Shown here: positions 25,365-60,822 of the stretch, piece by piece
Position numbering within the stretch: the stretch's first letter is position 1
How the letters are laid out: every line of letters starts with the position of its first letter
Source of the DNA: Candidatus Uhrbacteria bacterium
Lineage (GTDB): Bacteria; Patescibacteriota; Patescibacteriia; UBA9934; GWF2-40-263
Length of the DNA: 64,000 nt
Direction: 5' to 3'
Assembly (NCBI GenBank): GCA_016188475.1
Contig: JACPHT010000001.1
Span: 138-64,137, forward strand
Made by a program: the position numbers and the translations under genes
The notes under the pieces: model-generated
Database searches by the model: none
What the model was told of the DNA's origin: nothing
What the model saw: the letters and a program-made list of their open reading frames with translations, nothing else

Positions 25365-25901
25365 CTACTTGCGAACAAACAGAAAGCGGTTGCGAGCATC
25401 CCACCCGCCGTCGAACCAGCTGCGGCCGAAGATGCGCCTGCCGGAACCACTGTCCAGAACCGCGACACACTCGCCGTCGTCGTGCATCGCGAACGAGCCA
25501 AGAGCCACAATCCAGAACTGACGATGAAGGTCAGGACGTGCTTTCTGGAACGAATATGTTTCGATATGAGTCGCTGGACGATAGCCGAGCTTGTCCATCT
25601 CGGCTATTGCATCTTCGGACATTATCTCCCTGTTGAAATGCTTCACAAGGAAAACTTTGTCACCAACAGGAATGAGGTATTCGTTGGGGGAGATAGGCTT
25701 GACAGGCACGGAACCGACTGGAACGATGAGATCAAACACTCTGTCCACGAGATCAGGCTCTTTGATGAGCCTCCGCAAGTGATCGATCGTTCCATTGTGT
25801 TTGCGAAGAGCATTCACTATCACTCTTGTTAGCTCGAATACGAACCCGACAACAGAAAGCAACGTATCCAGATTCCAGTCTTTCCTTGCACTACGACTCA
25901 T
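25365..25901 (-). CDS. hypothetical protein in GC-rich island
   Basis: 178-aa ORF at about 50% GC embedded in a locally atypical segment; no motif recognised. Confidence 0.35.
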   Translation of the reverse strand: MSRSARKDWNLDTLLSVVGFVFELTRVIVNALRKHNGTIDHLRRLIKEPDLVDRVFDLIVPVGSVPVKPISPNEYLIPVGDKVFLVKHFNREIMSEDAIAEMDKLGYRPATHIETYSFQKARPDLHRQFWIVALGSFAMHDDGECVAVLDSGSGRRIFGRSWFDGGWDARNRFLFVRK

Positions 25902-26008: not shown

Positions 26009-26142
26009 CCTCGACCGTTGAAATACCATGTTCGTAAGCTAAATTTTATTCCCTGAGCCTATCGAAGGGAATAATGTACAAAAAATAATATTTACTGCCT
26101 TCGATGTTGCTCAGGCAATAATTAGAGTTTTTCAACGGTCCC
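26009..26142. repeat. composite palindromic element with two CCTGAGC-TCGAAGG cores in opposite orientation, flanked by CCTCGACCGTTGAAA / TTTCAACGGTC inverted repeats
   Basis: Cores at 26051-26070 and 26095-26114 match the family found in leuS, trxB, truB and intergenic sites. Confidence 0.6.
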
Positions 26143-34675: not shown

Positions 34676-37078
34676 TTATTTCACAACAATACTTACGATT
34701 CGTCCCTTCACATAAACAACTTTTTCAACTGTCTTACCTTCCAGATATTTTTTAACTTTTTCGTTTTCGAGAGCCAACTGTTTTGCAATTTTTTCTTCAA
34801 CATCAGGAGAGATTTCTAAAATTCCTCGAACTTTTCCATTCACCTGAACAGCGACCGAAATGATTTCCTCTTTTGCCAGTTCTTGATTGTGTATTGGCCA
34901 ACTTTGTTGTTCAAGAAGTTCTTTTCCACCAAGTTGTTCATGAAGTTCGTTTGACAGATGCGGCGCAAATGGACAGAGTAAGCGCAAAAATATCATAAAA
35001 CTTTCTTTTGAGATCGATCCGTTCTCTTTTGCCGCGTTCACAAAAATCATCATCTGCGAAACAGCTGTGTTGAAATGCATGTGTTCAATATCATCCGTGA
35101 CTTTTTTGATTGTTTGATGAAGTAAACGAGTGATCTTTTCTACTTCCGACTTTTCAGACCTTTCAGACTTTTCAGACCTTGTTGCCACATCTCCAACTTT
35201 CTCCAAAAACCTTCTCATACCAACAAGTCCGTTCATGCTCCACGGAACAGGTTCACCAAATGGACCCATAAACAATTCATACAAACGGACTGAATCAGCT
35301 CCGTACTCACTTACCATTTCATCTGGATTCACAACATTGCCTTTTGACTTCGACATCTTTGTTCCATCTTCTGCCAAAACAAGACCATGGCTTGTTCGCT
35401 TAGCATAAGGTTCGCTCACAGCAACATGTCCGCGATCAAACAAAAACTTATTCCAAAAACGTGAGTACAAAAGATGAAGTGTTGTGTGTTCCATTCCGCC
35501 GTTGTACCAATCAACAGGCATCCAATGTTTTAATTTTTTCTTGTCCGCAAACACTTTTTTATTTTTTGAATCAATGTACCGTAAAAAGTACCAACTTGAT
35601 CCTGCCCAATTTGGCATTGTGTCTGTTTCGCGTTTGGCAGGACCTCCACACTTTGGACATTTTGTATTTACCCAATCATGAATCGCGGCAAGAGGCGACT
35701 CGCCATTTTCTGTTGGTTCGTATTTTTCAACATCAGGCAATTGCACAGGAAGTTGTTTTTCTGGGACCGGAATCCACCCACACGCTTCACAATACACAAG
35801 TGGAATCGGCTCTCCCCAATACCTTTGGCGTGAAAAAACCCAATCACGAAGTTTGTATTGAACAGACTTTTTCCCGCCAGATTTCTCAATCGCTTCATCA
35901 AATGAAATGAGCGATCTGTCAACAATCGGTAGCCCAAACTTTTCAGCAAACTCACAATCTCGCTTGTCATGTTGAGGAACAGCCATCACAGCTCCTGTTC
36001 CATATTCACCCAAAACGTAATCAGCGACCCACACAGAAATTTTTTCTTTGTTTGCCGGATTGATGACAAACACGCCTGTTGGAACTCCTGTTTTTTCTTT
36101 ATTCTCTGCCTCGCGTTCTTTTTTATCTCGCTTGAGCGCTTGTTCAATATATCTTTTAACTTCTTCGCTCGACCTCCAACCATCTGCGATCCATTGTTGA
36201 GCTAACTCCGGAGAAATCACCAAAAACGTCGCGCCTAGAATTGTGTCAGGGCGAGTTGTGAAGACCTCGATCGACTCAACATCAGGAGATTGCTTCGCAG
36301 AGTTTACCATGAGCGAAGACAAATTTAAGCCTTCGACAGGCTCAGGCAATAAATTTGTCGAAGTCGAATGACTCACAATGACAAAACTGATTTTCGCTCC
36401 TTCGCTTTTTCCAATCCAATTTTTTTGTTGCGTTTTTATTTTTTCCAAATAATCAACTGTGTCCAAATCTTCCAACAACCGATCCGCGTATTTTGTGATC
36501 GCGATCATCCATTGCGCTTTTTCACGCTTCTCGGTCGGCCCGCCGCAACGTTCGCATTTTCCATCAACAACTTCTTCATTTGCCAAACCGATCTTGCACG
36601 ACACACACCAATTGATCGGCATCTTTGCTTTGTACGCAAGTCCTTCTTTGAAAAATTCCAAAAACATCCACTGCGTCCATTTGTAATATCCAGGATCGGT
36701 CGTATTCACTTCACGAGACCAATCAAAACTCAAACCAAACGATTGAAGTTGACGCTTGAACGTCGCGATATTTTCCGCTGTAACGTCTTGTGGTTTGCGT
36801 CCTGTTTTGATCGCGTAGTTTTCTGTTGGAAGTCCAAACGCATCCCAACCGATTGGATACAAGACATTGAAACCTTCCATTCTCCGCTTGCGAGCAACAA
36901 CGTCCATTGCCGTATAACTTCTCGGATGGCCCATGTGGAGTCCAGCGCCTGACGGATATGGAAATTCAATCAAACAATAGTACTTTGGTTTTTTTGATTT
37001 ATCTTGCGCTTGAAAAACACCGGCTTGTTCCCAGCGCTTCTGCCACTTTTTTTCAATTTGCTTGTGATTATAAGGCAT
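34676..37078 (-). CDS. leuS: leucyl-tRNA synthetase, carrying an in-frame palindromic-element insertion
   Basis: MPYNHKQIEKKWQKRW start; HMGH and KMSKS class I motifs; ORF track extends to 37105. Confidence 0.95.
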   Translation of the reverse strand: MPYNHKQIEKKWQKRWEQAGVFQAQDKSKKPKYYCLIEFPYPSGAGLHMGHPRSYTAMDVVARKRRMEGFNVLYPIGWDAFGLPTENYAIKTGRKPQDVTAENIATFKRQLQSFGLSFDWSREVNTTDPGYYKWTQWMFLEFFKEGLAYKAKMPINWCVSCKIGLANEEVVDGKCERCGGPTEKREKAQWMIAITKYADRLLEDLDTVDYLEKIKTQQKNWIGKSEGAKISFVIVSHSTSTNLLPEPVEGLNLSSLMVNSAKQSPDVESIEVFTTRPDTILGATFLVISPELAQQWIADGWRSSEEVKRYIEQALKRDKKEREAENKEKTGVPTGVFVINPANKEKISVWVADYVLGEYGTGAVMAVPQHDKRDCEFAEKFGLPIVDRSLISFDEAIEKSGGKKSVQYKLRDWVFSRQRYWGEPIPLVYCEACGWIPVPEKQLPVQLPDVEKYEPTENGESPLAAIHDWVNTKCPKCGGPAKRETDTMPNWAGSSWYFLRYIDSKNKKVFADKKKLKHWMPVDWYNGGMEHTTLHLLYSRFWNKFLFDRGHVAVSEPYAKRTSHGLVLAEDGTKMSKSKGNVVNPDEMVSEYGADSVRLYELFMGPFGEPVPWSMNGLVGMRRFLEKVGDVATRSEKSERSEKSEVEKITRLLHQTIKKVTDDIEHMHFNTAVSQMMIFVNAAKENGSISKESFMIFLRLLCPFAPHLSNELHEQLGGKELLEQQSWPIHNQELAKEEIISVAVQVNGKVRGILEISPDVEEKIAKQLALENEKVKKYLEGKTVEKVVYVKGRIVSIVVK
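36290..36395. repeat. palindromic element inserted in-frame in leuS
   Basis: GATTGCTTCGCAGAGTTTACCATGAGCGAAGACAAATTTAAGCCTTCGACAGGCTCAGGCAATAAATTTGTCGAAGTCGAATGACTC; near-identical copy in trxB; encodes NLLPEPVEGLNLSSLMVNSAKQS in LeuRS. Confidence 0.8.
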
Positions 37079-37094: not shown

Positions 37095-37185
37095 TGGTCT
37101 GTCATCCTGAGCCCTTCGACTTCGGTAAAGTTATCGCCTGAGCCTGTCGAAGGCCATAACTTTACCTTCGCTCAGGGTATAAACT
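37095..37185. repeat. palindromic element copies (reverse orientation) upstream of leuS
   Basis: CCTGAGCCCTTCGAC and GGTAAAGTTAT-CGCCTGAGCCTGTCGAAGGCC-ATAACTTTACC. Confidence 0.7.
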
Positions 37186-37352
37186 CCGTGAAGAATCTTT
37201 TGTTTAGAAGATCATTCGCTACGCTCAGAATGACTGAAACGCAATTCATTATTGATCCTATCACGGCGATCATAACAAAAATACGAACCGTTGACAAAAC
37301 CGAATGATTTTGATATCTTAAAAAGCCGTCACACAAAAGAATAGGAGGCAGA

Positions 37353-42448: not shown

Positions 42449-42466
42449 ATTTTTTCTTATTAAGAA

Positions 42467-42982: not shown

Positions 42983-43007
42983 AATTTTGTATGTTAATGG
43001 GTATGGC

Positions 43008-43931: not shown

Positions 43932-43949
43932 ACTTAAATTTGAAAAATA

Positions 43950-44035: not shown

Positions 44036-44064
44036 TCAGCTCTTGAGTTTGAATTTAAACTTTT

Positions 44065-44460
44065 TTAATATTTATCCTTAATGTATTTAAGAACTTCTAT
44101 ATCGTGGTCAATAATCTTTAGCTTGTTTATCTCGGAAAGATGAAACCAACCAAAATTTTGTCCTTCGCCTAAAGTAATTATTTTACTCGGATCAAATTCT
44201 TCCACAAAAACATGTTTTTCATTGGTTTCATCTTTCGACAAAAAATCTTGCTTCATTATCATCTTAGGGTTTTTGAGTGTGTAATTCAGCTCTTCAAGTG
44301 TTTCTCGCTTCACAGCCTGTTCTGGAGTTTCACCAGCTTCAATACCGCCACCGAAAAAAGCCCAATATCCAGGCAACCTTTCAGCATCTTCAGCACGATG
44401 TTGAAGTAAGATTTTTTTGTCTTGGTCGTATAAAATTATAATAGCTACGTTTCTCGCCAT
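44065..44460 (-). CDS. cassette-encoded NUDIX hydrolase
   Basis: Nudix box GGGIEAGETPEQAVKRETLEELNY; ORF flanked by 26-bp perfect inverted repeats TTTGAATTTAAACTTTTTTAATATTT. Confidence 0.8.
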   Translation of the reverse strand: MARNVAIIILYDQDKKILLQHRAEDAERLPGYWAFFGGGIEAGETPEQAVKRETLEELNYTLKNPKMIMKQDFLSKDETNEKHVFVEEFDPSKIITLGEGQNFGWFHLSEINKLKIIDHDIEVLKYIKDKY

Positions 44461-44518
44461 ATAGAAGTTCTTAAATGTTAAAATAAAGAAATATTAAAAA
44501 AGTTTAAATTCAAATTTC

Positions 44519-44690
44519 GCCTAACGGCCGGCGGCTGATCCGAAGTAAAAAGACACCTGACGTTTTTATGTTACAGGTGTCTTTTTATTTTGGATAGCCG
44601 CCTGTTGTGCGACGTCGCTTTGCAACGGAGCACAACAGAGGCGAAGCCGCCGGCCGTTATGCCGACAGAGCAAAGCGATGTCGGCATAAC
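44519..44690. repeat. cassette-junction element, copy 3
   Basis: Near-identical copy. Confidence 0.85.
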
Positions 44691-44921
44691 GTTCGTGTGT
44701 ATCTGAAGTTTTCATTCCGCTTCAATGGAATAAACTTTGATTATTAGATACACGCTTTTTAATAGAACCCCACCCAAATCCTCATCAAAACTAAGGGATG
44801 AAAATTTGGGCGGAGGAAAATTGGCACTCCTTAAGGATTTAATTAACGCCAATTTTCCATAGCCAGATACACGCTGTTATACGCTGTAATAAAAAGCCGA
44901 TTCGTTATTGATTTTGGCAAT

Positions 44922-45164
44922 TTATTTTTCTGTTTTGGAACCAAGAAATTTTCCCTCCACTACAACATCTTGTAATGCATTGAATAATTGAAGAACGCCG
45001 TTGCGGTGTTCCTCATTAACTTGAGGAAGTATTTCTTGAGTTAAACGAGCAAGACCTTCTGTAACTTTCCCTTTTGCATATTCTGGTAATGCTTTCATAT
45101 TGGGAGTCAATTCTACTGATAGCGAGGCTTTTGCGCCAACCTCTGGCCTGAATGTTTCTGTCAT
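44922..45164 (-). CDS. cassette-encoded hypothetical protein
   Basis: 80-aa ORF. Confidence 0.35.
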   Translation of the reverse strand: MTETFRPEVGAKASLSVELTPNMKALPEYAKGKVTEGLARLTQEILPQVNEEHRNGVLQLFNALQDVVVEGKFLGSKTEK

Positions 45165-45274
45165 ATTTTTTTAAGTTAATTATTACTTTGATTATACTAT
45201 GAGTTATACTCGACCGCTTCAAATAAATTGCCAAAATCAATATTCAAATTTCACAATCGGCTTTTTATTATGGC

Positions 45275-45446
45275 GTATAACGGCCGGCGGCTGATCCGAA
45301 GTAAAAAGACACCTGACGTTTTTATGTTACAGGTGTCTTTTTATTTTGGATAGCCGCCGGTTGTGCGACGTCGCTTTGCGACGGAGCGCAACAGAGGCGA
45401 AGCCGCCGGCCGTTATGCCGACAGAGCAAAGCGATGTCGGCATAAC
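45275..45446. repeat. cassette-junction element, copy 4
   Basis: Near-identical copy; terminator hairpin at 45303-45347. Confidence 0.85.
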
Positions 45447-45689
45447 GTTCCTGCGTATGCGATGTTTGCCAGTGGTATAATTGCACGAAGTGCTTACCAC
45501 TGGCAAATATGGGTGGAGGCTTGCGGAGGTACGAAGCAAGCCGTAACCGCATACGCAGTGTTATATGATGTACATGTTTTCCTTTAATTTCTGAAAGAAA
45601 TTGCTCTTATAAAAGAATCCGGTTTTGTTTTTCCGTTTGGGGCGAAGGGCAGAGGGGATTAAGGGGTGAATGCCCGAGCCCCAAACACT

Positions 45690-46298
45690 TTAATCTTCTT
45701 CACCCTCAATTCTTTTTCTGCGCTCATCTAGCGTTTCGCCTTCATACATCCAATAAGCTGTTCCTTGAATTCCGTAATCATAACCGAGAATTTTTTGTGC
45801 AGAAGAAGAAAGACTTGTAACTTTGCCATTAAAATTGATGGATTTATTATCAACCACATTTGCCTTAATGTTTTCATCGCGACTAAAAATTAATTCTGCA
45901 CCAACCGGAATGTTGACCATCTTAAAATTAAACTTAGCTCGCATTTCTGCACGTGCTTGATTTAGGGCATGCTGATCTTCTTTTGATTCCACGAAGTCTT
46001 TTTTAGGCGTAATATCTTCAATCTCTGCCAATTTAAGTGCAGAAACTACACGTTCTGGAGAGATTTGAAAAAATTCTCGTCTTGGATTTGTTCGGTTATT
46101 GTCAAATGCATCATGTAGCTGATGTTCAACAAAGGCTGCGTCTTTTACGGTACATGCGTAGAAACAAGTAAAAGGAAGTGGAACGCTCGTGGAAGCGCTA
46201 AGCTCTCTAATCCTTTGCTCAAGGCTTGTTGAAGTTTTGCCAATTTTTACATATCCAGGCATGGCTTCATTGATGAGAATGTAGATGATTTCAATCAT
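45690..46298 (-). CDS. T5orf172 (GIY-YIG-like) domain protein, second gene of the candidate defense pair
   Basis: IYILINEAMPGYVKIGKT...RIREL...PLPF...RREFF matches the T5orf172 pattern; start ATG overlaps the upstream stop (ATGA). Confidence 0.6.
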   Translation of the reverse strand: MIEIIYILINEAMPGYVKIGKTSTSLEQRIRELSASTSVPLPFTCFYACTVKDAAFVEHQLHDAFDNNRTNPRREFFQISPERVVSALKLAEIEDITPKKDFVESKEDQHALNQARAEMRAKFNFKMVNIPVGAELIFSRDENIKANVVDNKSINFNGKVTSLSSSAQKILGYDYGIQGTAYWMYEGETLDERRKRIEGEED

Positions 46299-48013
46299 AA
46301 TTTTATAGATTTATTTGGTGCTAAAAGTTCCTTAATTTTTGAAATTAAAGGTTTGAAATTCCCAAAAGTATCCGAGCTGGTTTCAGCTTGAACTTTATTT
46401 AAAAATTTGCCTTTATCGAAAGTGGTGATTGACGTAGTTGCACTATATGAGCCAGGTCTTACTTCCGTAGAGTAAACGTCATCTGTGAATAAGGTATCGG
46501 GGTATAGATTTTCAATGCCAACAGCTTTTCCATCTTTATCTTTAGCCTTTGTATTTGCAGAATTTTCCGCAAAGCAAAACTTTTTAAAGCTTTCTGTTTC
46601 TGTAATGCTGTTTATCATGGAGGCGCAGTCACAATCCCAAACAAAAAGGAACTTTCCGCTAAAATCACCGGACGACATTACGTCAAAAGCGTTTTTCAAC
46701 TGTTGCCCGCGCTTATCTGGCGAACCTTCTATAATTTTAATTTGACTAAGTAAAGTGTTGTCGAGGATTTCAAAAGCTTTTTTAATATGCTCTGTATTAT
46801 TTCCCTCCGTAACAATTTGTAAACTTTTCGTGCCATCAATCTCTTTTTGTATTTTTAAACCCTTTTCAAAGGTTATGATCCCCTCGCTTAAAAGGTTAAT
46901 AGCGTCTCCCTGTGATATTTTTCTGATTTTTTCATTTTTTTTGCCCTTCTGTATCTCAAATAGTGATTCTTCATATGCTAATGCGACCGTGGTCGGAGAA
47001 TGGGTAGCAAGAATAACCTTACAGCCGTTTTTTATGAACACATTTTGAATCACATCCAATAAATCTTGAATCATGGATGGATGAAGTGATGCATCTACTT
47101 CATCAAGAAGTAACAATGCAGGAAATTCTGATTTGTTATCTTGATAAACTGTAATAGCCAGTGCGCACAATATCTTTTCACCCGATGACAAGTCTTCAAA
47201 ATCAATTTCTTCATCATCTATGGAGAGTTTTACTTGAAATGATACAGCTTGACTATTTATCAGATCTCCAGCTGTAAATTCTGGATGTGAAATAGTATGA
47301 AGTAGCCCAAACTCTTTAAACATGCTGTTTACAAAATTCCATGGAGATTGTTCTTCTATTTTTTTGATTTGGCTATCGTTTAATCCTTCTCCGCCGTCGC
47401 TTTCTCTTAATTTTGCCACGGTTAGTTTTTTTTGATAATCAAGAAAAACTTCGCTTAAACTTTCTAGAAGCTCGTACTCATCTGGGCTGTAGTTTGAAAA
47501 TTTAAAAAATTCTGCCTGTGTGATTTCCGAAGCGTATTTAACAGACTCGAATACGCCCGTTTTTAAAAGCTTCTTAATTTTGGGATTATCTTTTGTATGC
47601 TTATTTATAAAGGTTAGAATATCCTTTTTTTGTTCAGCGTATTTTTGTTTTTGTGCTTTTGGCACTTCAAAATCATAGGGGTACTCCTTTTCGCCCACGA
47701 ATGTTTTAATTTGATTGTCGTAATTTTGGAATTGTTGCCTTTGAGAATTTAAGATATTCCACGCTTGCATTTTTTCATCATCAAGATTCCGTGGGGCAAT
47801 TTTAGCCTGGTTCTTTATGAGAAATGTTTGTAGGTTAAAGTACGAAATCCTTTCTTTTTGTATGTTGTCAGCTGAAACAAAGCCCTCTTGCATCGCCTTG
47901 AGCAAGTGAGTTTTTCCAGCGCCGTTTACACCTAGAAATATCGAAAAGTCCTTAATATCAATTTCACTAAAGTTGGCGATTGATTTATGTTTTTGATTGA
48001 ATTTAATATTCAT
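46295..48013 (-). CDS. OLD-like ABC-type ATPase fused to a C-terminal TOPRIM-like nuclease domain
   Basis: Walker A GVNGAGKTHLLKA, ABC signature LSSGEKI, Walker B LLLLDEVDASLHP, H-loop ATHSP; C-terminal IVTEGNNTE ... FVWDCDC resembles TOPRIM Glu and DxD. Confidence 0.6.
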   Translation of the reverse strand: MNIKFNQKHKSIANFSEIDIKDFSIFLGVNGAGKTHLLKAMQEGFVSADNIQKERISYFNLQTFLIKNQAKIAPRNLDDEKMQAWNILNSQRQQFQNYDNQIKTFVGEKEYPYDFEVPKAQKQKYAEQKKDILTFINKHTKDNPKIKKLLKTGVFESVKYASEITQAEFFKFSNYSPDEYELLESLSEVFLDYQKKLTVAKLRESDGGEGLNDSQIKKIEEQSPWNFVNSMFKEFGLLHTISHPEFTAGDLINSQAVSFQVKLSIDDEEIDFEDLSSGEKILCALAITVYQDNKSEFPALLLLDEVDASLHPSMIQDLLDVIQNVFIKNGCKVILATHSPTTVALAYEESLFEIQKGKKNEKIRKISQGDAINLLSEGIITFEKGLKIQKEIDGTKSLQIVTEGNNTEHIKKAFEILDNTLLSQIKIIEGSPDKRGQQLKNAFDVMSSGDFSGKFLFVWDCDCASMINSITETESFKKFCFAENSANTKAKDKDGKAVGIENLYPDTLFTDDVYSTEVRPGSYSATTSITTFDKGKFLNKVQAETSSDTFGNFKPLISKIKELLAPNKSIKL

Positions 48014-48192
48014 AGTTTACTTCAAGTGTGGAAATCACAAATTGGCGTTATTTTACTCCGTTTCCTCCTATAAATAAATCGTTTTCGGAGCGGAGCGTAG
48101 AAAACTCCTTATTTCCCCTCTATAAAAAAAGAAAAACAAAACCGGATTCTTTTTAAGAGCTTGGCGAAGCCAAAAAGGAAAACATGTATTTC

Positions 48193-48340
48193 ATATAACG
48201 GCTGGCGGCTGATCCGAAGTAAAAAGACACCTGACGTTTTTATGTTACAGGTGTCTTTTTATTTTGGATAGCCGCCTGTTGTGCGACGTCGCTTTGCGAC
48301 GGAGCGCAACAGAGGCGAAGCCGCCGGCCGTTATGCCGAC
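48193..48340. repeat. cassette-junction element, copy 5
   Basis: Near-identical copy (CGGCTGG variant at the left arm). Confidence 0.85.
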
Positions 48341-48481
48341 AGAGGCGGAACAAAAATTTGGGAGAAGGAATTTTTCTTACCTTGAATTATAAATGTGAAA
48401 AATTCCTGAACCGGATATGCCGTGTTGTGCGATGTCCGCATTTGCCCGCCCTTGTTAGTTGGAAATGGATGCCCCGAAATC

Positions 48482-49060
48482 TTATTGCAAAATCTTTTCC
48501 AATAGTTCAGGAAACTCCTCGGTTTTCATATCGCCCAAGCAGTAATGACCTCGCCCTTTTAGCTCGACAATCTCGCCACCAAGCACCTCATGAAAAATTT
48601 TTAAACTTTTTTTACCGTCTTCCTCCTCGTCGTCCGCAGTGAACATAACTATTTGATTTATCCTATCCTTGATAGACGAGTCAATCTGATATGTATAGAA
48701 ATTTACATCGGTACCACTTCTTTTTTCTTGCGGAATTTTCCAAGGCGCGACTAAAAAAAGTTTAAAAATTTTGGTCTTAGTCTCACTAAGCCAGCGAACC
48801 AAGAAGGCGCAACCGCAACTATGTCCAACTAAAATTGTGTTTTCATCAACAGTATATTTTTCAAATTCAGCCTTAAATTTTTCATAATCAGGTTGCCAAG
48901 GCGAGGGCATGAGAGGAGTTTCCGTTTCAATATTTTTTGCAATAAGATTTCTTTTTAACCACGGAATCCAGTGCTTGTCATAAGTCCTTGTTTCAGGATT
49001 CATCGCTTTTTCAGCATCAGAGGGGCATCCATGGATTATGATACATCTATTCTTTGTCAT
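48482..49060 (-). CDS. cassette-encoded alpha/beta hydrolase (RBBP9/YdeN-like serine hydrolase)
   Basis: IIIHGCPS ... LVGHSCG nucleophile elbow. Confidence 0.55.
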   Translation of the reverse strand: MTKNRCIIIHGCPSDAEKAMNPETRTYDKHWIPWLKRNLIAKNIETETPLMPSPWQPDYEKFKAEFEKYTVDENTILVGHSCGCAFLVRWLSETKTKIFKLFLVAPWKIPQEKRSGTDVNFYTYQIDSSIKDRINQIVMFTADDEEEDGKKSLKIFHEVLGGEIVELKGRGHYCLGDMKTEEFPELLEKILQ

Positions 49061-49325
49061 ATGGTTGAATGTTATTTTTAGCACTAGGGCAAATGCGGAT
49101 TTCGCACAACGTATCCAAATATCTGAAGTTTCGCACTTTGGTTTTAAGGCTAAAATCTTTGATATCCAGACTATTTTGTTAGTTTAATTATACTATACAT
49201 TATCACAAAACGGAAAAGTGCGAAATTTGGGTCGAGAAAATTTTTCACTCTTTATTATTTCTAATAAATGAAAAATTTTGGAGCCAGATATTTGGTGTTC
49301 AACGATGTTGCGAGGATTTTCGTTT

Positions 49326-49547
49326 TTATTTCTCAGAATGTTTTAATTTAATCAAATCATATATTGCAGAAACGGTAAAAATAATTTGCAAAATAATAAA
49401 TATTAAATCGCTTAGGTAAATACTGTATATTTCCAGGCATACTCCGCCAACAATATACATCAAGTCCTGCGTACGACGATTTTTATTTATAATGCCAGCG
49501 GATATTAATAATAATCCGACCGCGCCTATCATCTTAAAAATTGACAT
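49326..49547 (-). CDS. cassette-encoded small membrane protein
   Basis: About 73 aa; three hydrophobic helices. Confidence 0.4.
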   Translation of the reverse strand: MSIFKMIGAVGLLLISAGIINKNRRTQDLMYIVGGVCLEIYSIYLSDLIFIILQIIFTVSAIYDLIKLKHSEK

Positions 49548-49594
49548 ATTATTTTGCAAATTATTTTGTTTTCAGGAAAAAATCCTCGCAATTT

Positions 49595-49700
49595 CGTTGA
49601 ACGTTCACCGATAAGCGAAGTTTTATTGAGCAAAGCGAAATAAAATTTGCGAAAAACTCGGGCTGAGAGTTTTTCCGCTTATCGCGTTGTTATACGCCCC
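49595..49700. other. attC-like site
   Basis: TTGAAC-GTTCACCGATAAGCG...CGCTTATCGCG-T-GTTATAC. Confidence 0.55.
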
Positions 49701-49758
49701 GAGCGAAACGAAGTGTAGCGAGAGCGCAGCGTGGTGCGGAGCGTAGCGGAGCAAGTTG

Positions 49759-50262
49759 CTAATTTGCCCGTTTCATCTGCTGGACTTTTTTTAAAAACAC
49801 AATATCTCTTTGCTGAATAAAAGAACCCTCATAATTTGTTGGTTTATCGTTTTCAACTTTGGAAATTGCTTCATCTAATGGCAACCAAACGAGTTTAAAG
49901 TTTTGGCTTAATTCCTCTTCCGTGAAAGCAGGCGACCCTTTTGATGTTATTTTGCCTATATAACAATAGGATATTTGTTTCAAATTGAAATTTGAACGAT
50001 ATTCAATAATTTCCCCAACTTCACCAGTGACTTTAATTTCACTCCCGACTTCTTCCATAACTTCGCGGACCAGAGCTGCGGCCTTATTTTCGCCATCGTC
50101 GATTCCGCCGCCAGGTAATTTGTGATAGTTATAATTTGAAACAAATAGAAGAGGAATTAAGCCATTCTCGTCAAAAAGCACAGCTCTTGATGCTTCTCTA
50201 ATTTCCAAAGTTGATTCATCTTTAGGCCACTCTTTGTCTTTTATCTCGTGTAATAGTTCCAT
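49759..50262 (-). CDS. cassette-encoded NUDIX hydrolase
   Basis: Nudix box GGGIDDGENKAAALVREVMEEVGSE. Confidence 0.8.
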   Translation of the reverse strand: MELLHEIKDKEWPKDESTLEIREASRAVLFDENGLIPLLFVSNYNYHKLPGGGIDDGENKAAALVREVMEEVGSEIKVTGEVGEIIEYRSNFNLKQISYCYIGKITSKGSPAFTEEELSQNFKLVWLPLDEAISKVENDKPTNYEGSFIQQRDIVFLKKVQQMKRAN

Positions 50263-50323
50263 AGTAAATTATGAGGGTTCTTTATTTTTATAAATGTATC
50301 GGCAAGGGCAAATTAGCAATTGC

Positions 50324-50468
50324 GTATAACGGCCGGCGGCTGATCCGAAGTAAAAAGACACCTGACGTTTTTATGTTACAGGTGTCTTTTTATTTTGGAT
50401 AGCCGCCTGTTGTGCGACGTCGCTTTGCGACGGAGCGCAACAGAGGCGAAGCCGCCGGCCGTTATGCC
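50324..50468. repeat. cassette-junction element, copy 6
   Basis: Near-identical copy. Confidence 0.85.
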
Positions 50469-50549
50469 ATTACCGCCTAAGCGAGAGAAGGATGGCGTAT
50501 ACGCGCTGTTGTACGATTGCAGAACACCAACTTGAATTATGTAATCTTG

Positions 50550-51158
50550 CTAAATAGTAGTATGGACAAAGTCGTAAAATTGAGAAAAGTCTTTGACGAC
50601 AATAGACGGATTGCCGTTAATTAAATTTTGTTCATTTTGGTAACCACCAAGAATTCCAACAATTATTTTCACACCAACCTTCTTAGCTTCAGCAATATCT
50701 CCGGCTGTGTCGGTAATAAAAGTAACATTATTGGGTTCCAGAGCATATTTTTCAAATAGCATCTTAAATTTTTCTACCTTGCTTGTATGAACCTCATTGC
50801 CAAGAATCTTTTGAAAACAGGATAGTATGCCATGGCTCTGAAGATAGTCTTGAATGATATCACTTCGAGTACTTGAAATAATAAATAGTTGGAACTCTTG
50901 TGATAATTTTTGAATAAAGTCTTTCTTTTTTGAATCAATACCTAAATGTTTGAAACGGTCCCCGTACTCTCTAAAAAAGTCTATTTTTTTTACGACTTTG
51001 TCCTCGTATTTTACTTCATTAATATTACCATTGAAGGCATTTTGATATCGCTCCAAAGTTAAAGTTGGCCTTGAGAGCTTATTCACTTCAAAAGCTATGT
51101 CAAAACTATCAGCGATTACTCCATCAAAGTCGAAGATAATAGTAGGCTTATGATCCAT
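50550..51158 (-). CDS. cassette-encoded HAD-family hydrolase
   Basis: IIFDFDGVIADS motif I (DxDG). Confidence 0.7.
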   Translation of the reverse strand: MDHKPTIIFDFDGVIADSFDIAFEVNKLSRPTLTLERYQNAFNGNINEVKYEDKVVKKIDFFREYGDRFKHLGIDSKKKDFIQKLSQEFQLFIISSTRSDIIQDYLQSHGILSCFQKILGNEVHTSKVEKFKMLFEKYALEPNNVTFITDTAGDIAEAKKVGVKIIVGILGGYQNEQNLINGNPSIVVKDFSQFYDFVHTTI

Positions 51159-51189
51159 AGATCTTAAATAAAAGGGTGTTCTGCTTTTC

Positions 51190-51305
51190 GTACAACGTTC
51201 GCGCATAAGCGATGTTTGCCAGTTGTATAATATGCCGTTAGGCTTACAACTGGCAAATATGGGTGGAGCGACGAGGTACGAGGAGCGGAACCGTTTATGC
51301 GCTGT
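51190..51305. other. attC-like site
   Basis: GTACAAC-GTTCGCGCATAAGCG...CGTTTATGCGC-T-GTTAAGT with internal TTTGCCAGTTGTA/TACAACTGGCAAA dyad. Confidence 0.55.
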
Positions 51306-51326
51306 TAAGTGATGTGTTTGAGAATT

Positions 51327-52034
51327 CTACTTCAAATAGGTTTCCAGATTTTTGACCATTCGCCCCACATAAAGGTTTAGGCTTTTTTGGCCAATTTCCT
51401 TATTAACAATCCAATCGGGATGATTATCTGCAATTCCATTCGGACTTTTTTCAGCTATATTATCAGTTTCAAAGGCATCTTCGATGAAGGTCTTTTTTTC
51501 GTCTTTGCTTGGCGGAATGACAGTCGCTTCATCTATTACCATCATGTTTGAAATTTCGGTATTGCCTGCATGTCCATCTGATGGACCGCCAAGCATTTCA
51601 ACAAGCTTTTGTTCATCCTCATCGTTGCACATCTCAAGATGAACTATTTTAGCGGGCTGAAAAAAGTCCGATTTTTCTCGGATAAACTTTTGAATATATG
51701 GGTCATTATGATGAAACGATGTAATGAAAATATAATCTGCTTTTTGAAAAATAGAATTGCAGATATCAAACATTACTTGAGCAAGTGTTTCTTCGGTAAG
51801 ATAGACTGTGCCAAAAAAGCCACGGTGCTCTTGTGCACGAGAGAACTCTAACGTTGGAAGAATTACCAGCTCAGGAAACTGTTTCTCAACTTGATCAACA
51901 AGATAGTCAGTAATATACGTGTCAGTACCGAAGGGGGCGAATGGTCCATGTTGCTCAAGCGAACCTATTGGAACGACGAAATTGTATTTTGTATCACCAG
52001 ATAAATCTGGAAACCTCATTCTTTTTAATCTCAT
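51327..52034 (-). CDS. cassette-encoded creatininase-family amidohydrolase
   Basis: VVPIGSLEQHGP ... GTD ... GHAGNTE motifs. Confidence 0.65.
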   Translation of the reverse strand: MRLKRMRFPDLSGDTKYNFVVPIGSLEQHGPFAPFGTDTYITDYLVDQVEKQFPELVILPTLEFSRAQEHRGFFGTVYLTEETLAQVMFDICNSIFQKADYIFITSFHHNDPYIQKFIREKSDFFQPAKIVHLEMCNDEDEQKLVEMLGGPSDGHAGNTEISNMMVIDEATVIPPSKDEKKTFIEDAFETDNIAEKSPNGIADNHPDWIVNKEIGQKSLNLYVGRMVKNLETYLK

Positions 52035-52065
52035 ATTTTTAGTATAGATGAATTCTCAAACATTT

Positions 52066-52214
52066 CACTTAACGGCCGGCGGCTGATCCGAAGTAAAAAG
52101 ACACCTGACGTTTTTATGTTACAGGTGTCTTTTTATTTTGGATAGCCGCCTGTTGTGCGACGTCGCTTTGCGACGGAGCGCAACAGAGGCGAAGCCGCCG
52201 GCATGTCGGCATAA
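52066..52214. repeat. cassette-junction element, copy 7 (short variant), proximal to the recombinase
   Basis: Near-identical copy about 155 bp from the recombinase start. Confidence 0.85.
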
Positions 52215-52371
52215 CTAGTAAATATACGAACTTGTGTCGGATAAAATACTTTGAAAATGAATTATATGATGTGAGTAACCTGCGTTGACAAGTACATGAA
52301 ATCATGTAACAATAAGATTGTAAATAACCTCCTATTCTAATCTTGATGGGCGGTTTTTTTATATCTTCAAT

Positions 52372-53202
52372 ATGTTTTTAATTTCTAATACCGAACAAGC
52401 GTTGTTGTCTATTGACCAACTTCTACGCATAAAAAATTACAGTCCAAAAACAATAAAAAGTTACAAGGGCTGTTTGGCTAGATTCTTAAAACAGTTTCCT
52501 GATTGTTTGAACTATTCAAACATCGAGTGTATCAAAACATTCCTTTTATCCATGCGCGAATCTGGATTATCTCCTCAAACTATCAATGTACATCTTCAGG
52601 CAATACAATTTTATTTTCGTGAAATCTTACATCAACCATTCCGTTTCACTCTACCATACGCAAAACGACCGAAACGGTTGCCTGTCATACTTTCTAGATC
52701 AGAAATTGAACAAATTCTAAACCATATATCAAACACAAAACATAAAACCATGATCGCTCTGGCTTATGGGGCGGGACTCCGTGTCTCTGAAGTGGTTGAG
52801 TTGCGCTCTGGAAACGTAGATTTTCCTTCCGGAGTTTTATATATTTATCAAAGTAAAGGCAAAAAAGATCGTATAACAATTCTTCCAGAAATATTGCGCG
52901 ATGAATTACAAAAAGCGGTTTGTGGAAAATCACCGAACGATTATCTTTTTGCCAGCGAACGAGGCGGACGTTTGTCTGAACGTTCAATTCAAAAAGTATT
53001 TTCTCGTGCGCTTCATTCAACACAGATAAACAAACAAGCAACATTTCATTCACTGCGTCATAGCTTCGCAACACACGTTTTGGAACAAGGAACTGACATC
53101 AGATTCATTCAAAAACTTCTTGGCCATGCAAATATTAGAACAACACAAATTTACACTCACGTTTCAACAGCTTCTATCAGTGCAATCAAAAGCCCGCTAT
53201 AG
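52372..53202 (+). CDS. tyrosine site-specific recombinase, integron-integrase-like (XerC/D superfamily)
   Basis: R...HSLRHSFATHVLEQGTDIRFIQKLLGH...TTQIYTHV catalytic core; LPVILSRSEIEQIL and GAGLRVSEVVELRSGNVDF...YQSKGKKDRIT segments resemble IntI as recalled; transcribed divergently from the cassette array; appears to lack the long IntI-specific insertion. Confidence 0.7.
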   Translation: MFLISNTEQALLSIDQLLRIKNYSPKTIKSYKGCLARFLKQFPDCLNYSNIECIKTFLLSMRESGLSPQTINVHLQAIQFYFREILHQPFRFTLPYAKRPKRLPVILSRSEIEQILNHISNTKHKTMIALAYGAGLRVSEVVELRSGNVDFPSGVLYIYQSKGKKDRITILPEILRDELQKAVCGKSPNDYLFASERGGRLSERSIQKVFSRALHSTQINKQATFHSLRHSFATHVLEQGTDIRFIQKLLGHANIRTTQIYTHVSTASISAIKSPL

Positions 53203-53212: not shown

Positions 53213-54319
53213 TTATTCCCGTGAGAGCCACCTCTCAGCATCAAGAGCGGCAACACAACCCGAACCGGCGGCTGTGACAGCTTGGCGATAATACGGATCA
53301 ATCACATCGCCTCCAGCAAATACTCCTTCAACACTTGTTTTTGAAGTGTTTGGTTTCACAACAATATATCCTTTGCGATCAAGTTCAAGTTGATTGACAA
53401 ACAAATCTGTGTTTGGTTGATGTCCAATCGCGACAAACAATCCATCAGCGGAAAAATCTGAAACAACGTTTGTGACATTATTCAAAACTCGAACTGCATT
53501 CATTCTTTTTCCATCGCCTAGAACCTCTTGAACTTCTGTGTTAAACATAAATCCAATCTTCGGATTCTTCATCGCTCGCTCCTGCATAATCTTTGACGCG
53601 CGCAACTCATTTCGTCTGTGTATCACTGTTACTTTGCTTGCAAAATGTGTAAGAAAATTCGCTTCCTCCATTGCCACGTCTCCGCCACCAACCACAATAA
53701 CGTGCTTGTCCTTGAAAAAAAATCCGTCACACGTTGCGCATGCGGAAACGCCGCGACCTTGATATTCTTTTTCACCTGGAACATTCAACCACAATGCTTT
53801 CGCGCCAGTACAGATAATAATCGCTTGGCTTGAATATACCGCTTCGTTTGTTTTTACAATAAATGGTAAAGATTGCTTCGCGGAGTTTACAATGAACGAA
53901 GATAAATTTATGCCTTCGACAAGCTCAGGCAATAAATTTGTCTGGGTCGAATGACTCGAAATGATATTTTTTTGTTCGACAAGCTCAGGCAATAAATTTA
54001 TAGGAGTCAAAGGGCTCGTAGTGACGGTCTTTTGTCGAGCGGAAAAATCAACTGAAACCACATCGTCGCTCACAATTCGAGTTCCAAATCGTTCAGCTTG
54101 TTTCTTGAAACGTTCCATGAGTTCTGGTCCAATTAACCCTTCTGGAAATCCGGGAAAATTTTCAACTTCGTTTGTTAACATCAACTGCCCTCCAGGCTGT
54201 CCGCCAATCTGTTTTCCTTCAAACAAAAGCGGTCGCAACTGCGCGCGCGCCGCGTAAATTGCCGCCGTATATCCAGCCGGACCAGAACCGATAATGATAA
54301 GATTTTCTGACGTACTCAC
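53213..54319 (-). CDS. trxB: thioredoxin reductase carrying an in-frame palindromic-element insertion
   Basis: GSGPAGYTAAIYAARA FAD motif, CATC redox site, GGGDVAMEEA NADPH motif. Confidence 0.9.
   Translation of the reverse strand: MSTSENLIIIGSGPAGYTAAIYAARAQLRPLLFEGKQIGGQPGGQLMLTNEVENFPGFPEGLIGPELMERFKKQAERFGTRIVSDDVVSVDFSARQKTVTTSPLTPINLLPELVEQKNIISSHSTQTNLLPELVEGINLSSFIVNSAKQSLPFIVKTNEAVYSSQAIIICTGAKALWLNVPGEKEYQGRGVSACATCDGFFFKDKHVIVVGGGDVAMEEANFLTHFASKVTVIHRRNELRASKIMQERAMKNPKIGFMFNTEVQEVLGDGKRMNAVRVLNNVTNVVSDFSADGLFVAIGHQPNTDLFVNQLELDRKGYIVVKPNTSKTSVEGVFAGGDVIDPYYRQAVTAAGSGCVAALDAERWLSRE
53872..54010. repeat. palindromic element (one full copy plus one partial copy) inserted in-frame in trxB
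   Basis: Cores GCCTTCGACAAGCTCAGGC at 53912-53930 and GTTCGACAAGCTCAGGC at 53974-53990; encodes NLLPELVEQKNIISSHSTQTNLLPELVEGINLSSFIVNSAKQS. Confidence 0.8.
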
Positions 54320-54338
54320 AAAATATAGAAATTATATT

Positions 54339-54357
54339 GCCTTCGACAGGCTCAGGC
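54339..54357. repeat. palindromic-element core in the trxB-trxA spacer
   Basis: GCCTTCGACAGGCTCAGGC flanked by ATTATATT / AATAATTT. Confidence 0.6.
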
Positions 54358-54365
54358 AATAATTT

Positions 54366-56759: not shown

Positions 56760-57479
56760 ATGAATGGATTTTTGCTTATCAATAAACCGGAAGGACCGAC
56801 ATCTCATGATATTGTTGATTCTGTACGTAGAAATATCCAACCTCCGACTTCCAACCTCCGACTTCCGAAAGTTGGGCATGCCGGAACGCTTGATCCTTTT
56901 GCATCTGGACTTTTAATTGTTGGCGTTGGACGCGAAGCAACGCGTGAAATGCAAAAACTTGTTGGTTTAGATAAAACTTATGAGGCAGTGTTTGTTTTGG
57001 GAGCTTCATCTGATACTGATGATAAAACTGGGAAAATAACTTTGGTCCATCCACAAGAACCTTTGACGCAAGAACGTGTTCAAGAAGCTCTCAAACAATT
57101 TATTGGTGAAATAGAACAAACGCCACCGGTATATTCCGCGATAAAAATAGGCGGAAAAAAAATGTACGAAGCCGCTCGTGAAGGAAAACCAATAGAAGCT
57201 AAAGCAAGAGAAGTGACGATATATTCCATGAGCGAAGTCCAGTTTATCCCTTCGACTAGCTCAGGGAATAAACTGGACAAAGTCGAACGGGCGACTATCT
57301 CTTTAACCATTCACTGCTCATCCGGCACATATATCCGCGCGATCGCGCGAGATCTTGGGCAGGTGCTTGGCACTGGCGGATATGTTGAATCTCTTCGTCG
57401 AACAAAAATCGGACCGTTCGATATTTCTGAATGTAGCGAGTCAATTATTCCAATAAGTGCCTTTTTATCGAGGCTTTGA
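56760..57479 (+). CDS. truB: tRNA pseudouridine(55) synthase, carrying an in-frame palindromic-element insertion
   Basis: MNGFLLINKPEGPTSHDIV..GHAGTLDP..; ORF track extension to 56556 overlaps infB and is not translated. Confidence 0.85.
   Translation: MNGFLLINKPEGPTSHDIVDSVRRNIQPPTSNLRLPKVGHAGTLDPFASGLLIVGVGREATREMQKLVGLDKTYEAVFVLGASSDTDDKTGKITLVHPQEPLTQERVQEALKQFIGEIEQTPPVYSAIKIGGKKMYEAAREGKPIEAKAREVTIYSMSEVQFIPSTSSGNKLDKVERATISLTIHCSSGTYIRAIARDLGQVLGTGGYVESLRRTKIGPFDISECSESIIPISAFLSRL
57210..57300. repeat. palindromic element inserted in-frame in truB
   Basis: CCATGAGCGAAGTCCAGTTTATCCCTTCGACTAGCTCAGGGAATAAACTGGACAAAGTCGAACGG; stem arms changed compensatorily relative to the leuS copy. 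Confidence 0.75.
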
Positions 57480-57691
57480 CAAGTTACAGTTTTTTTGTTA
57501 ATCTTTTTTCGTCCTTTAATGATTTTACCGTTTCCGAAGAAGTCGCATTTGCGTGGCTTTTGCCCTCTATGCAATCAATTCGTCTCGCTAGCAACCAGAA
57601 TCTCAATTTATCCTTCTGCGTGAAGGCGATGTTGTTGTCATAGAACCAAAACCCGCAAAATGAGGCTTCTCGAAACATAACGAGAAGTTTT

Positions 57692-59304: not shown

Positions 59305-59595
59305 ATGAACAAAGCGGACTTGGCAAACATTCTTGCCGAACAACTGAAAGTCTCAAAAAAAATGGCTGAAGATTTTGTTGCTGGATTTGAAGAGATCGTC
59401 ACCCGCGCTCTTTCGCGCGGAGAAGAAGTTACAATCGCCGGATTTGGAACGTTTAGTGCGCGAGCTCGCAAAGGCCGCATAGGTGTAAACCCGCAAAAAC
59501 CGTCCGAGCCTATCACAATTCCAACTGTAACTGTTCCAAAGTTCAAAGCTGGAAAAGCGCTTAAAGATACACTCAAAGGAAAACGGAGCATTTAA
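59305..59595 (+). CDS. hup: DNA-binding protein HU
   Basis: MNKADLANILAEQL...GFGTFSARARKGR..NPQ HU signature. Confidence 0.9.
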   Translation: MNKADLANILAEQLKVSKKMAEDFVAGFEEIVTRALSRGEEVTIAGFGTFSARARKGRIGVNPQKPSEPITIPTVTVPKFKAGKALKDTLKGKRSI

Positions 59596-60822
59596 GCTCC
59601 GTTTTTCGTTAATGCAATCACCTCTTCAACGAGATCTGTCAGTTTAACTAACTGCGCGGTTTCTTCGTGACGCTCTTTCCATTCAACTGAATCTTCAGCA
59701 AGGGATTTTTCCGAAACAACAAGCCGAAGTGGAATTCCGATCAAATCAGCATCCGCAAATTTCTCGCCAGCAGACGCGTCACGATCGTCCCACAAAACTT
59801 CAACTCCTTTAATTTCCAAATCCTGCATAAGCGATTCAGCTGTGTTTTCGATTTTTTCCTTTATAGACTGGTCTTTGTTTGAAAGCGAAACAATGTGAAC
59901 ATCAAACGGCGCAACACTCTTTGGCCAAATCATTCCGCGATCGTCATTGTGAATTTCAACGATTGATCCCATAACGCGCGACGGACCAATTCCATAACAA
60001 CCCATAAGTACATCGTGCATTTGTCTGTCAGGTCCTTGAACTTTGAAACCAAACGCATCAGTAAATCTAGTTTTGAGCGGAAAAATATTTCCGACTTCAA
60101 TTGATTTTGTTTCAACAACTTTTCCTGTTTTGCATGAAGGACACGCGTCGCCATCTTTCACTTCAGCGATTTCGCGATTCTGCGCGAATCCGCACTTGCA
60201 ATGAGTGGCTGAATTTTGAAAACACCCCACCGCTTGCTTCAACAATCAGAGCGTCAAGTCCACATCGTTTGAAAACATTTAAGTACGCTTGTTTGCTCTT
60301 CTCGTAAAAATCCAAAAAATCTTCTTCAGTCAAATGAAAGCTGTACAAATCTTTCATTGAAAATTCACGGCCACGCAAGAGGCCTGATTTCGCGCGCGGC
60401 TCGTTTCGAAACTTATCTTGAATTTGATAAACCGAAAGCGGTAAATCTTTGTACGAATGAACGTACTGTTGAACAAGCGGTGTTACAATTTCCTCGTGCG
60501 TTGAACCAAGAGCGTATTGTTTTTCACCGTGTCCTTCTAATTTGAACAACACATCAATTTTATCCCAGCGCTGTGTTTTGTCGTAAACATCTTTTGGATG
60601 AAGCGCTGGCATGTAAATTTCGCTTGCGCCAAGTTTGTTCATTTCATCGCGAACGATATTGTGAATTTTTTTGAGAACGCGAAGACCGAGCGGTAGATAA
60701 GTATAAACACCTGCCATGAGTTGATTGATAAATCCGGCTTGCGTGAGCAAACGCGCGTTTGTTGAATCCGCGTCGTGCGGAGCTGTTTTATTTGTTTTTC
60801 CGAAAAGTTGAGAGTAGCGCAT
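59592..60822 (-). CDS. proS: prolyl-tRNA synthetase, reading frame interrupted by an apparent single-nucleotide frameshift near 60200-60245
   Basis: N-terminal ORF 60163..60822 carries the class II catalytic core up to GGVFSKFSHS; the overlapping ORF 59592..60245 carries the zinc-binding CxxC region and anticodon-binding domain. Confidence 0.8.

Follow-up and report, generated by a model that had tools for sequence, protein, structure and literature searches.

An in-frame palindromic insert in truB of a Candidatus Uhrbacteria genome is probably a resident copy of a small, hairpin-forming mobile repeat

The gene truB (56760..57479, plus strand), encoding a tRNA pseudouridine-55 synthase of 239 amino acid (AA) residues, lies in a 64,000-nt stretch (hereafter the window) of contig JACPHT010000001.1 from Candidatus Uhrbacteria, a small-genome member of the Patescibacteria or Candidate Phyla Radiation (CPR). 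Its product is 100% identical to TruB of ‘Candidatus Uhrbacteria bacterium’ in NCBI and displays the Pfam domains TruB_N (residues 33-192, 4.5e-47) and TruB_C_2. The gene is flanked by infB on the minus strand and rny on the plus strand, with trxA and trxB immediately upstream of infB. Within truB, a composite palindromic element of 63 nt (57229..57291, plus strand) provides 21 codons in-frame and consists of box A, TGAGCGAAG (57229-57237), a 5' arm, GTCCAGTTTATCCC (57237-57250), the loop TTCGACTAGCTCA (57251-57263), a 3' arm (57264-57278, including GGAATAAACTGGAC at 57265-57278), the direct repeat CAAAG (57278-57282) and box B, TCGAACGGG (57283-57291). The arms at 57237-57250 and 57265-57278 form a 14-bp stem with 93% complementarity around the loop, and the copy folds as single-stranded DNA (ssDNA) at -15.6 kcal/mol (z = -4.4), a value matched by 0 of 200 shuffles. 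The insert covers approximately residues 157-178, between the conserved VTIYS and IHCSSGTYIR blocks of the TruB_N catalytic domain, and is read in the truB frame as ...SMSEVQFIPSTSSGNKLDKVERATISL.... The original prediction, made from the letters of the window, had claimed an in-frame insertion between conserved blocks of the catalytic domain; the Pfam boundaries confirmed the location, and the peptide it had quoted is that of the actual truB frame.

The truB segment is one of three members of a 95-nt direct-repeat family in the window, located at 36287-36381 (leuS), 53870-53964 (trxB) and 57206-57300 (truB). It shares 63% identity with the reference over 95 nt, including an exact 15-nt match, with 0 mismatches, to the core TTCGACNRGCTCAGG. 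A search with this core allowing up to 2 mismatches gave eight matches in the window against 0.56 expected (0 of 100 shuffles reached 8), of which four are intragenic (truB, leuS and two in trxB) and four are in spacers. Five further copies folded as ssDNA gave z values of -3.0 to -4.2, again with 0 of 200 shuffles as good. The leuS copy (36287..36381, minus strand, ~95 nt) is read in-frame as SHSTSTNLLPEPVEGLNLSSLMVNSAKQS at the junction of the catalytic and editing domains, and the trxB insert (53867..54034, minus strand) adds 168 nt, or 56 AA residues, in-frame in the form of a tandem pair, of which the copy with its core at 53915 is intact and that with its core at 53975 has decayed. Both genes are encoded on the minus strand and read the other strand of the element, as SHSTSTNLLPEPVEGLNLSS and NLLPELVEGINLSS, respectively (...NLLPE(P/L)VEG(L/I)NLSS...), so that the claimed opposite strand and different frame of the truB copy agree with the translations. 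At most one frame per strand is free of stops in these three copies. The minus-strand frame is open in all of them, whereas the plus-strand frame is open only in the truB copy, which has CGG where the leuS and trxB copies end at TGA (GTCGAATGAC); each of the three host genes uses a stop-free frame of its own copy. The possibility that the truB copy, whose loop starts with UUCGA in the mRNA, mimics a T-arm and acts as an autoregulatory decoy was rejected on three grounds: a loop of 13 nt instead of 7, a different closing pair and the opposite orientation of the element in other genes.

The spacers contain shorter and longer forms of the same element. A cluster upstream of leuS (37100..37260, minus strand) holds the most canonical composite (37100-37185), arranged as CCC-TGAGCGAAG-hairpin-CGAAG-TCGAAGGG, and the trxA-trxB spacer carries a hairpin-only copy of 41 nt, ATTGCC-TTCGACAGGCTCA-GGCAAT (54324..54364, plus strand). 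Two short intergenic hairpins, TATTCCC-TGAGCCTATCGAA-GGGAATA and TGCC-TTCGATGTTGCTCA-GGCA, are found at 26045..26125 with no strand assigned. They lie at the right end of a 1-kb segment (25118-26147) that is missing from a relative at locus L124 and includes an orphan open reading frame (ORF) of 178 AA residues (25365..25901) without a Pfam match. Read on the minus strand, the hairpin copy at 54331-54359 gives TTGCCT, which together with TATAAT after 17 nt makes a promoter-like pair just upstream of trxB; this is the best sigma-70-like match of the region (10/12 positions), and the element is missing from the relative.

Metagenome copies were fetched by a pattern in which the stem was left free and, together with the copies in the window, provided the canonical composite: CC(C) - TGAGCG(A/G)AG - 5' arm of 9-12 nt - CCTTCGACARGCTCAGG - 3' arm - CGAAG - TCGAAGG(G). 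The basic unit comprises an invariant loop, CC-TTCGAC-AR-GCTCA-GG, closed by a stem whose sequence varies. The 5' arms took 14 distinct forms in 16 copies, with 95% of positions paired in our own count. A plain MAFFT alignment of full composites mis-registered the arms owing to variable bulges, and an outer-anchored alignment was used instead. In this gap-free alignment of 57 columns and 16 copies, 95.8% of cells are paired compared to 68.9% in shuffles, both sides are altered in 9 of the 12 stem pairs, and the covariation score of 0.674 was reached by 0 of 500 shuffles (0.156 in shuffles; 0.06-0.10 when the 3' partner was slid). The outer 3-bp stem covaries as well (CCC/GGG to TCC/GGA). Between the truB and leuS copies four pairs are altered on both sides (A-T to T-A, A-T to C-G, A-T to G-C and G-C to C-G), which, together with the family-wide covariation, bears out the compensatory stem changes that had been proposed. 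Pairing under selection is supported at the family level.

The conserved flanks of the composites are not inverted copies of each other. When joined, they read TGAGC-GAAG-TCGAA, the reverse complement of the same loop type, and the composites in truB, leuS and trxB look like a CGAAG-flanked hairpin inserted into the loop of a second, inverted copy, TGAG[CGAAG]TCGAA. The clearest nested example is the composite at 37100-37185 on the minus strand, directly upstream of leuS, and the CGAAG direct repeat inside the composites could represent a single ancestral 5-bp duplication. Searches against Rfam 15 gave no matches at gathering thresholds over the whole window, and the permissive mode applied to two element regions returned miRNA and snoRNA matches at chance level only (E >= 0.19). 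A scan for intrinsic terminators did not call the element hairpins, because their 13-nt loop exceeds the limit of 8 in the scan, and terminator-like matches in the region were at shuffle level (6 versus 5.4). The one call within an element is a weak 5-pair stem at the box-B end (57281-57296). Unlike gene-end terminators, the truB, leuS and trxB copies are internal to ORFs.

The comparison of orthologues that had been suggested in the original prediction was performed with a relative of conserved synteny (loci L003 and L124 of JGI sample 3300038439), which shares approximately 81-93% nucleotide identity with the window in the main syntenic blocks, and with further metagenomic loci. TrxB of the relative (313 versus 368 AA residues, 91% identity) is without exactly the 56 residues encoded by 53867-54034, and L003 has 3 nt in place of the 41-nt hairpin between trxA and trxB. 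Since these copies are missing from a close relative, the family is, or recently was, mobile; the insertion in trxB is a recent one. An orthologue of 90% identity (P0121/L124) has the leuS copy and P0122 (85% in BLASTP, 88% in the alignment) lacks it, and the spacer upstream of leuS is approximately 150 nt shorter in L124. The truB element, by contrast in age, is found at identical codon positions in L003 (87% protein identity) and L143 (sample Ga0265296), and with a different stem in an orthologue of 65% identity (P0008/L002, Logan SRR22388348); this insertion is older than the split of at least three sampled lineages. L003 also has insertions that are not in the window, of ~185 nt in the infB-truB spacer (7090-7274) and ~125 nt in the truB-rny spacer (8174-8309), and the repeat content therefore differs in both directions between the two genomes.

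The same core is found in-frame in other proteins. In sample Ga0265296 it lies in CysRS (L165), just before the GFPGWHIECSAM motif, in the frame PSTGSG, and in the coiled coil of SMC (L193) in the frame RLSLSKA. With LLPELVEG in LeuRS and TrxR, at least three frames are in use across hosts, which argues for a filter (frame kept, no stop, permissive turn) and against a selected peptide; the peptide and box B flank drift freely (KVERAT, GIEWVV and EVEGPI). The segment from VTIYS to IHCSSGTYIR ranges from 11 to 46 AA residues among 100 TruB orthologues scored there, and four repeat-derived peptide families occupy the site, each in other lineages: PSTSSG, ARRNEMTTKQS...GLAMT, SRDLST...SVEMT and LNDSTT. 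A related, un-nested element sits in the same loop of the P0004 TruB in a different codon phase, which points to an independent insertion event, and the leuS site is likewise occupied by different repeats in different orthologues. Other repeat families were observed in-frame at these loops in related Uhrbacteria, in truB of P0003, P0005, P0007, P0004, P0022, P0040 and P0108, and in leuS of P0122 and P0123, with peptides such as ARRNEMTTKQS...GLAMT, SRDLST...SVEMT and IASVASLPRND; the P0123 LeuRS has an extra insert of the same kind, 34 AA residues long, at another place.

Structural modelling of TruB with AlphaFold2 on the orthologue alignment (mean predicted local distance difference test score, pLDDT, of 90.6) placed the insert as an extension of the strands 150-165 and 177-186 with a loop pLDDT of ~74, suggesting that it elongates an existing beta-hairpin by approximately 14-21 residues. 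It is missing from solved TruBs, where its position falls between adjacent residues, and in the solved TrxR structure 5uth the site of the trxB insert lies between residues 108 and 110. Peptides predicted from the inserts are EVTIYSMSEVQFIPSTSSGNK (tryptic) for TruB, one spanning NLLPELVEGINLSSFIVNSAK for TrxR and NLLPEPVEGLNLSSLMVNSAK for LeuRS.

Separate from the palindromic element, truB carries a heptad-periodic segment of 39 nt (56832..56870, plus strand; TCCRACY x5) that encodes NIQPPTSNLRLPK. Tandem Repeats Finder reported period 14 and 2.2 copies with 100% match at 56836-56866, and the 14-mer CCAACCTCCGACTT is repeated perfectly (56837-56864) with exact matches only at 56837 and 56851, in agreement with the tandem duplication noted earlier. 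A small hairpin at the end of the segment (CCGACTT-CCGA-AAGTTGG, 56858-75) is weak and was discarded as a structure, its z value of -0.8 not being significant. L003 has 18 unrelated nt at this site, a net difference of +21 nt (7 AA residues) for the window that keeps the frame, and the +7 form is present in 4 of 112 orthologues scored. An equal-length homologue in P0004 (L245), from the independent run SRR22388286, reads CTCCGAC GTCCGAC ATCCGAC AACCGAC TTCCGAA. On this sequence comparison, the tandem is a homogenisation inside an older heptad tract and not a net gain of 14 nt, which explains the intact frame, and the homologue in an independent assembly makes mis-assembly of the tandem unlikely.

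The data show a multi-copy family that varies in presence between close relatives, changes its stem in compensated pairs and lies in-frame in several essential genes. Combining the repeat family, the covariation and the presence and absence among relatives, we consider it quite probable that truB harbours a resident copy of a structure-dependent mobile repeat that is small, non-autonomous and hairpin-forming, resembles the Rickettsia palindromic elements (RPEs) in behaviour and repetitive extragenic palindromes (REPs) and REPINs in architecture, and is translated where frame, stops and a permissive beta-turn allow. Copies would spread via a structure-specific ssDNA step, for which an enzyme encoded outside the window would act in trans, possibly one of the HUH/Y1 type or another hairpin-recognising recombinase; such a route is suggested by the conserved loop with variable stem, the nesting in loops and the lack of terminal repeats and of a target duplication at trxB. 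Insertions may land anywhere, but an insertion into an essential gene would survive only if it preserved the frame, had no stops and lay in a permissive turn between two beta-strands, where it would simply be translated. The original prediction that the element was mobile as a hairpin stands as regards mobility, given that the relative with 91% TrxB identity has neither the trxB insert nor the hairpin of the spacer, whereas the hairpin mode is suggested by the conserved loop, the variable yet paired stem, the missing target duplication at trxB and the lack of a strand bias in mismatches.

Several observations weigh against a mobile, translated repeat of this kind. At trxB, the sole clean filled/empty site within a gene, the junctions display neither a target-site duplication nor terminal inverted repeats, and nothing convincing of either was seen at the junction of the spacer hairpin. 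No transposase, HUH or Y1_Tnp domain was detected in the 57 ORFs scanned in the window, which covers ~64 kb of the genome; the sole recombinase there is an Xer-like tyrosine recombinase (52372..53202). Translation of the insert is itself deduced from the open frame. In addition, the hairpins are better conserved than their host genes, which a purely decaying selfish insert does not predict: the leuS hairpin is identical at 45/45 nt between the window and L124 while whole leuS is at 86.5% (0.865^45 ~0.0015), and the truB hairpin is identical at 40-41 of 42 nt among three lineages while the rest of truB is at 82-88% (binomial P ~0.003 for the window versus L143). The conserved nucleotides include synonymous positions. 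The pattern hints at a maintained function or DNA-level constraint, or at self-templated correction of the palindrome.

This excess conservation, in which the hairpins (leuS 45/45, truB 41/42) far exceed the flanking codons, also argues for a functional nucleic-acid signal kept by the host, either in DNA, as a site for protein binding or uptake, or in mRNA, as a structure by which decay or the speed of translation is tuned. The invariant 17-nt loop core, recurring in genomes of many phyla with a guanine-cytosine (GC) content of 0.31-0.74 among the matches listed, and the coincidence of the short copy upstream of trxB with a -35/-10-like pair (10/12) point in the same direction. However, copies come and go between close relatives with no sign of compensation, they lie in both orientations with respect to transcription and in unrelated genes and spacers, and the peptide and box B flank drift freely. 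A strand-specific RNA structure was rejected on the mismatches of 59 well-paired copies, in which G-T and T-G (19) show no asymmetry compared to A-C and C-A (21). Taken together, we regard a signal kept by the host as possible but rather unlikely.

The remaining explanations are much weaker. Ribosomal bypassing is known for the mobile ‘byp’ hairpins of Magnusiomyces mitochondria, which are skipped by the ribosome, and for phage T4 gene 60, and a mobile palindrome with a stable hairpin (RNA fold of -25.7 kcal/mol, z -3.4) in the ORFs of essential genes might be bypassed in the same manner or removed from the RNA. Against this, the host frame is open in every intragenic copy examined (truB in four lineages, leuS in two, trxB, CysRS and SMC), inserts with defined boundaries are multiples of three (63 nt in truB, 168 nt in trxB), and AlphaFold accommodates the residues as a beta-hairpin extension. 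Since bypassing would not require an open frame, we find an untranslated element very unlikely. Repeats are a classic source of mis-assembly, and proS in the same window has a frame-breaking deletion of 41 nt relative to L003, but the truB element occupies the same codon position in four independent assemblies (window, L003, L143 and L002) and the heptad segment keeps the frame, with its equal-length homologue in SRR22388286 (L245) and three more orthologues with +7 AA residues, so that an assembly artefact in the insert or the tandem has an even slimmer chance. Least credible of all is an ordinary, lineage-specific TruB loop with a coincidental or convergent resemblance to leuS and trxB; the length of this loop does vary in all TruB orthologues, but chance would have to supply the exact 15-nt core, 63% identity over 95 nt and the same succession of box A, stem, loop, stem and box B as at unrelated loci, with stems linked by compensated changes.

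The core extends far beyond the window. The 17-mer CCTTCGACARGCTCAGG was found at at least 120 loci in species-representative genomes and at least 120 in IMG/VR viral contigs. Among the genome matches listed, the GC content is 0.31-0.74 and the phyla include Bacteroidota, Chloroflexota, Cyanobacteria, Alpha-, Beta- and Gammaproteobacteria, Actinomycetota, Acidobacteriota, Planctomycetota, Nitrospirota and several CPR groups, with Microbacterium, Sphingomonas, Novosphingobium and Pedobacter as cultured isolates. The raw count was discarded as evidence because ~140 chance matches are expected in 596 Gb by our own arithmetic, and the recurrence of flanks was used instead: of the 138 genome matches listed, 26% are followed by GARCGG within 12 nt downstream, an inverted partner lies within 60 nt upstream in 23%, and 12 loci have several copies. 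A 22-base composite pattern gave at least 120 metagenome loci with on the order of one expected by chance, an estimate made without a known collection size. Literature searches with the core DNA and characteristic peptides returned unrelated papers and primers only, and nothing was found on palindromic or in-frame repeats of CPR bacteria. We tentatively speculate, with considerable doubt, that CCTTCGACARGCTCAGG, TGAGCGRAG and TCGAAGG mark an unnamed pan-bacterial superfamily of structure-dependent mini-elements that nest in each other's loops, travel between phyla, possibly with phages, become fixed in essential genes of CPR bacteria and are under stronger purifying selection as hairpins than the surrounding codons. 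If so, a conserved cellular or mobile-element protein would read the loop and the resident copies would do something.

Among known systems, the closest parallel is provided by RPEs (Ogata et al. 2000, 2002), which PMC10969869 and PMC1779305 summarise as interspersed palindromes of 100-150 bp in spacers and in-frame in housekeeping genes. Both families occupy spacers and the frames of unrelated housekeeping genes, including aminoacyl-tRNA synthetases, both supply an extra peptide compatible with the fold (here predicted), and both combine a small-genome host with inserts of mixed ages, some clade-wide and some lineage-specific. The present family differs in its host (Patescibacteria/CPR, not Rickettsiales), its unit of ~40-95 nt instead of 100-150 bp, its invariant loop with variable stem, its nested architecture and a core found far outside the host clade. 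The family is a counterpart and not a member of the RPEs, set apart by size and host, and a sequence relationship is not expected.

The intragenic GTAG/CGTC REPs (Di Nocera et al. 2013, PMC3733652) are stem-loops that are likewise mostly extragenic and sometimes in genes, where they add 20-30 residues in several phyla, the CGTC class being without a dedicated transposase. Their loops are 4-5 nt in the CGTC class compared to a conserved loop of 13 nt here, where the flanks are halves of an inverted loop; GTAG/CTAC or CGTC/GACG was found at the stem ends of 0 of 16 aligned composites, and CGAAG flanks the stems on both sides. REPINs (Bertels and Rainey 2011, PMC3116915) are also non-autonomous, have conserved blocks around a compensating hairpin and form clusters by insertion into or beside existing copies. 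However, they are inverted pairs of conserved REPs, nearly all extragenic and near a gene for a REP-associated tyrosine transposase (RAYT), whereas here no RAYT was detected in the 57 window ORFs scanned, the blocks are not mutual inverted copies and copies are intragenic. MITEs (miniature transposable elements with inverted repeats) such as Correia, Nezha and ERIC (PMC10969869) are small non-autonomous repeats able to create in-frame fusions and promoters, but have conserved terminal inverted repeats and target-site duplications derived from a parent insertion sequence; in the present family the inverted repeat is the variable stem (14 arms in 16 copies) and no duplication is present at the trxB site. 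The family departs from the GTAG/CGTC REPs, MITEs and RPEs in the features that define each of them and represents a known process in a new lineage.

Very small mobile hairpins that nest in one another or in coding sequence are also known as the mitochondrial ‘byp’ and GC-cluster hairpins, and the small dispersed repeats of Nostoc, reportedly the subject of work by Elhai et al. in 2008, behave alike. The Nostoc repeats and byps differ from the present family in sequence and host, and the present copies appear to be translated whereas byps are skipped.

Protein-coding palindromes have been taken as a peculiarity of Rickettsia, and a 2024 review (PMC10969869) merely conjectures the mechanism outside this genus; the same process here remodels core translation and redox enzymes of a CPR bacterium, with the same few protein loops struck time and again by distinct families of repeats. 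In CPR genomes such inserts affect annotation and phylogenomics, in that they lengthen alignments artificially and give rise to spurious ORFs; for protein evolution they would represent a ready supply of loop extensions in minimal genomes. A 17-nt loop conserved across a GC content of 0.31-0.74 with a freely covarying stem points to a structure-reading enzyme, and the extra conservation of the hairpin offers a testable handle on whether ‘selfish’ inserts are maintained.

Several other features of the window were recorded. An integron-like array (41200-53202) has a tyrosine recombinase of 276 AA residues (52372..53202, plus strand; Phage_integrase and SAM_4), too short for a classical IntI, that faces away from unrelated minus-strand ORFs including creatininase, HAD, NUDIX, Ser_hydrolase and an AAA_21 ATPase with T5orf172. 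These ORFs are separated by seven copies of a repeat of 100-214 nt containing the palindrome CGTTATGCCGAYAGAGCAAAGCGATGTCGGCATAACG, and in the close relative the same recombinase and array repeat flank different genes (DpnI-like, dCMP deaminase and DUF1653). The truB-rny spacer (57480-57650) is ~99% identical to that of the relative, compared to 85-93% for neighbouring genes; it gave no match in Rfam and may represent a small RNA or a conserved leader preceding the RNase Y gene. A class II aminoacyl-tRNA synthetase gene, probably proS (59592-60822), is split into two overlapping ORFs with the junction near 60204/60205; the deletion of 41 nt relative to L003, where it is one gene of 421 AA residues, removes EFQVPTQYGEDLIY and shifts the frame, and the split may reflect a pseudogene, variation between strains or an error of assembly.

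Two copies (~90% identical) of a different repeat of 125 nt, with terminal inverted repeats of ~23 nt (ATCTTTGCAAAACT...), lie at 6853-6977 and 11566-11689, just upstream of two genes of the ribosomal protein operon, rpsH and rplB, whose annotated starts they overlap; L003 has a related piece inserted between truB and rny. Finally, an inverted repeat of 25 bp with 96% complementarity (22585-22668), located between M50 peptidase and EPSP-synthase-family genes, is conserved in both loci of the relative (L003 ~10285-10358 and L124 18913-18964).

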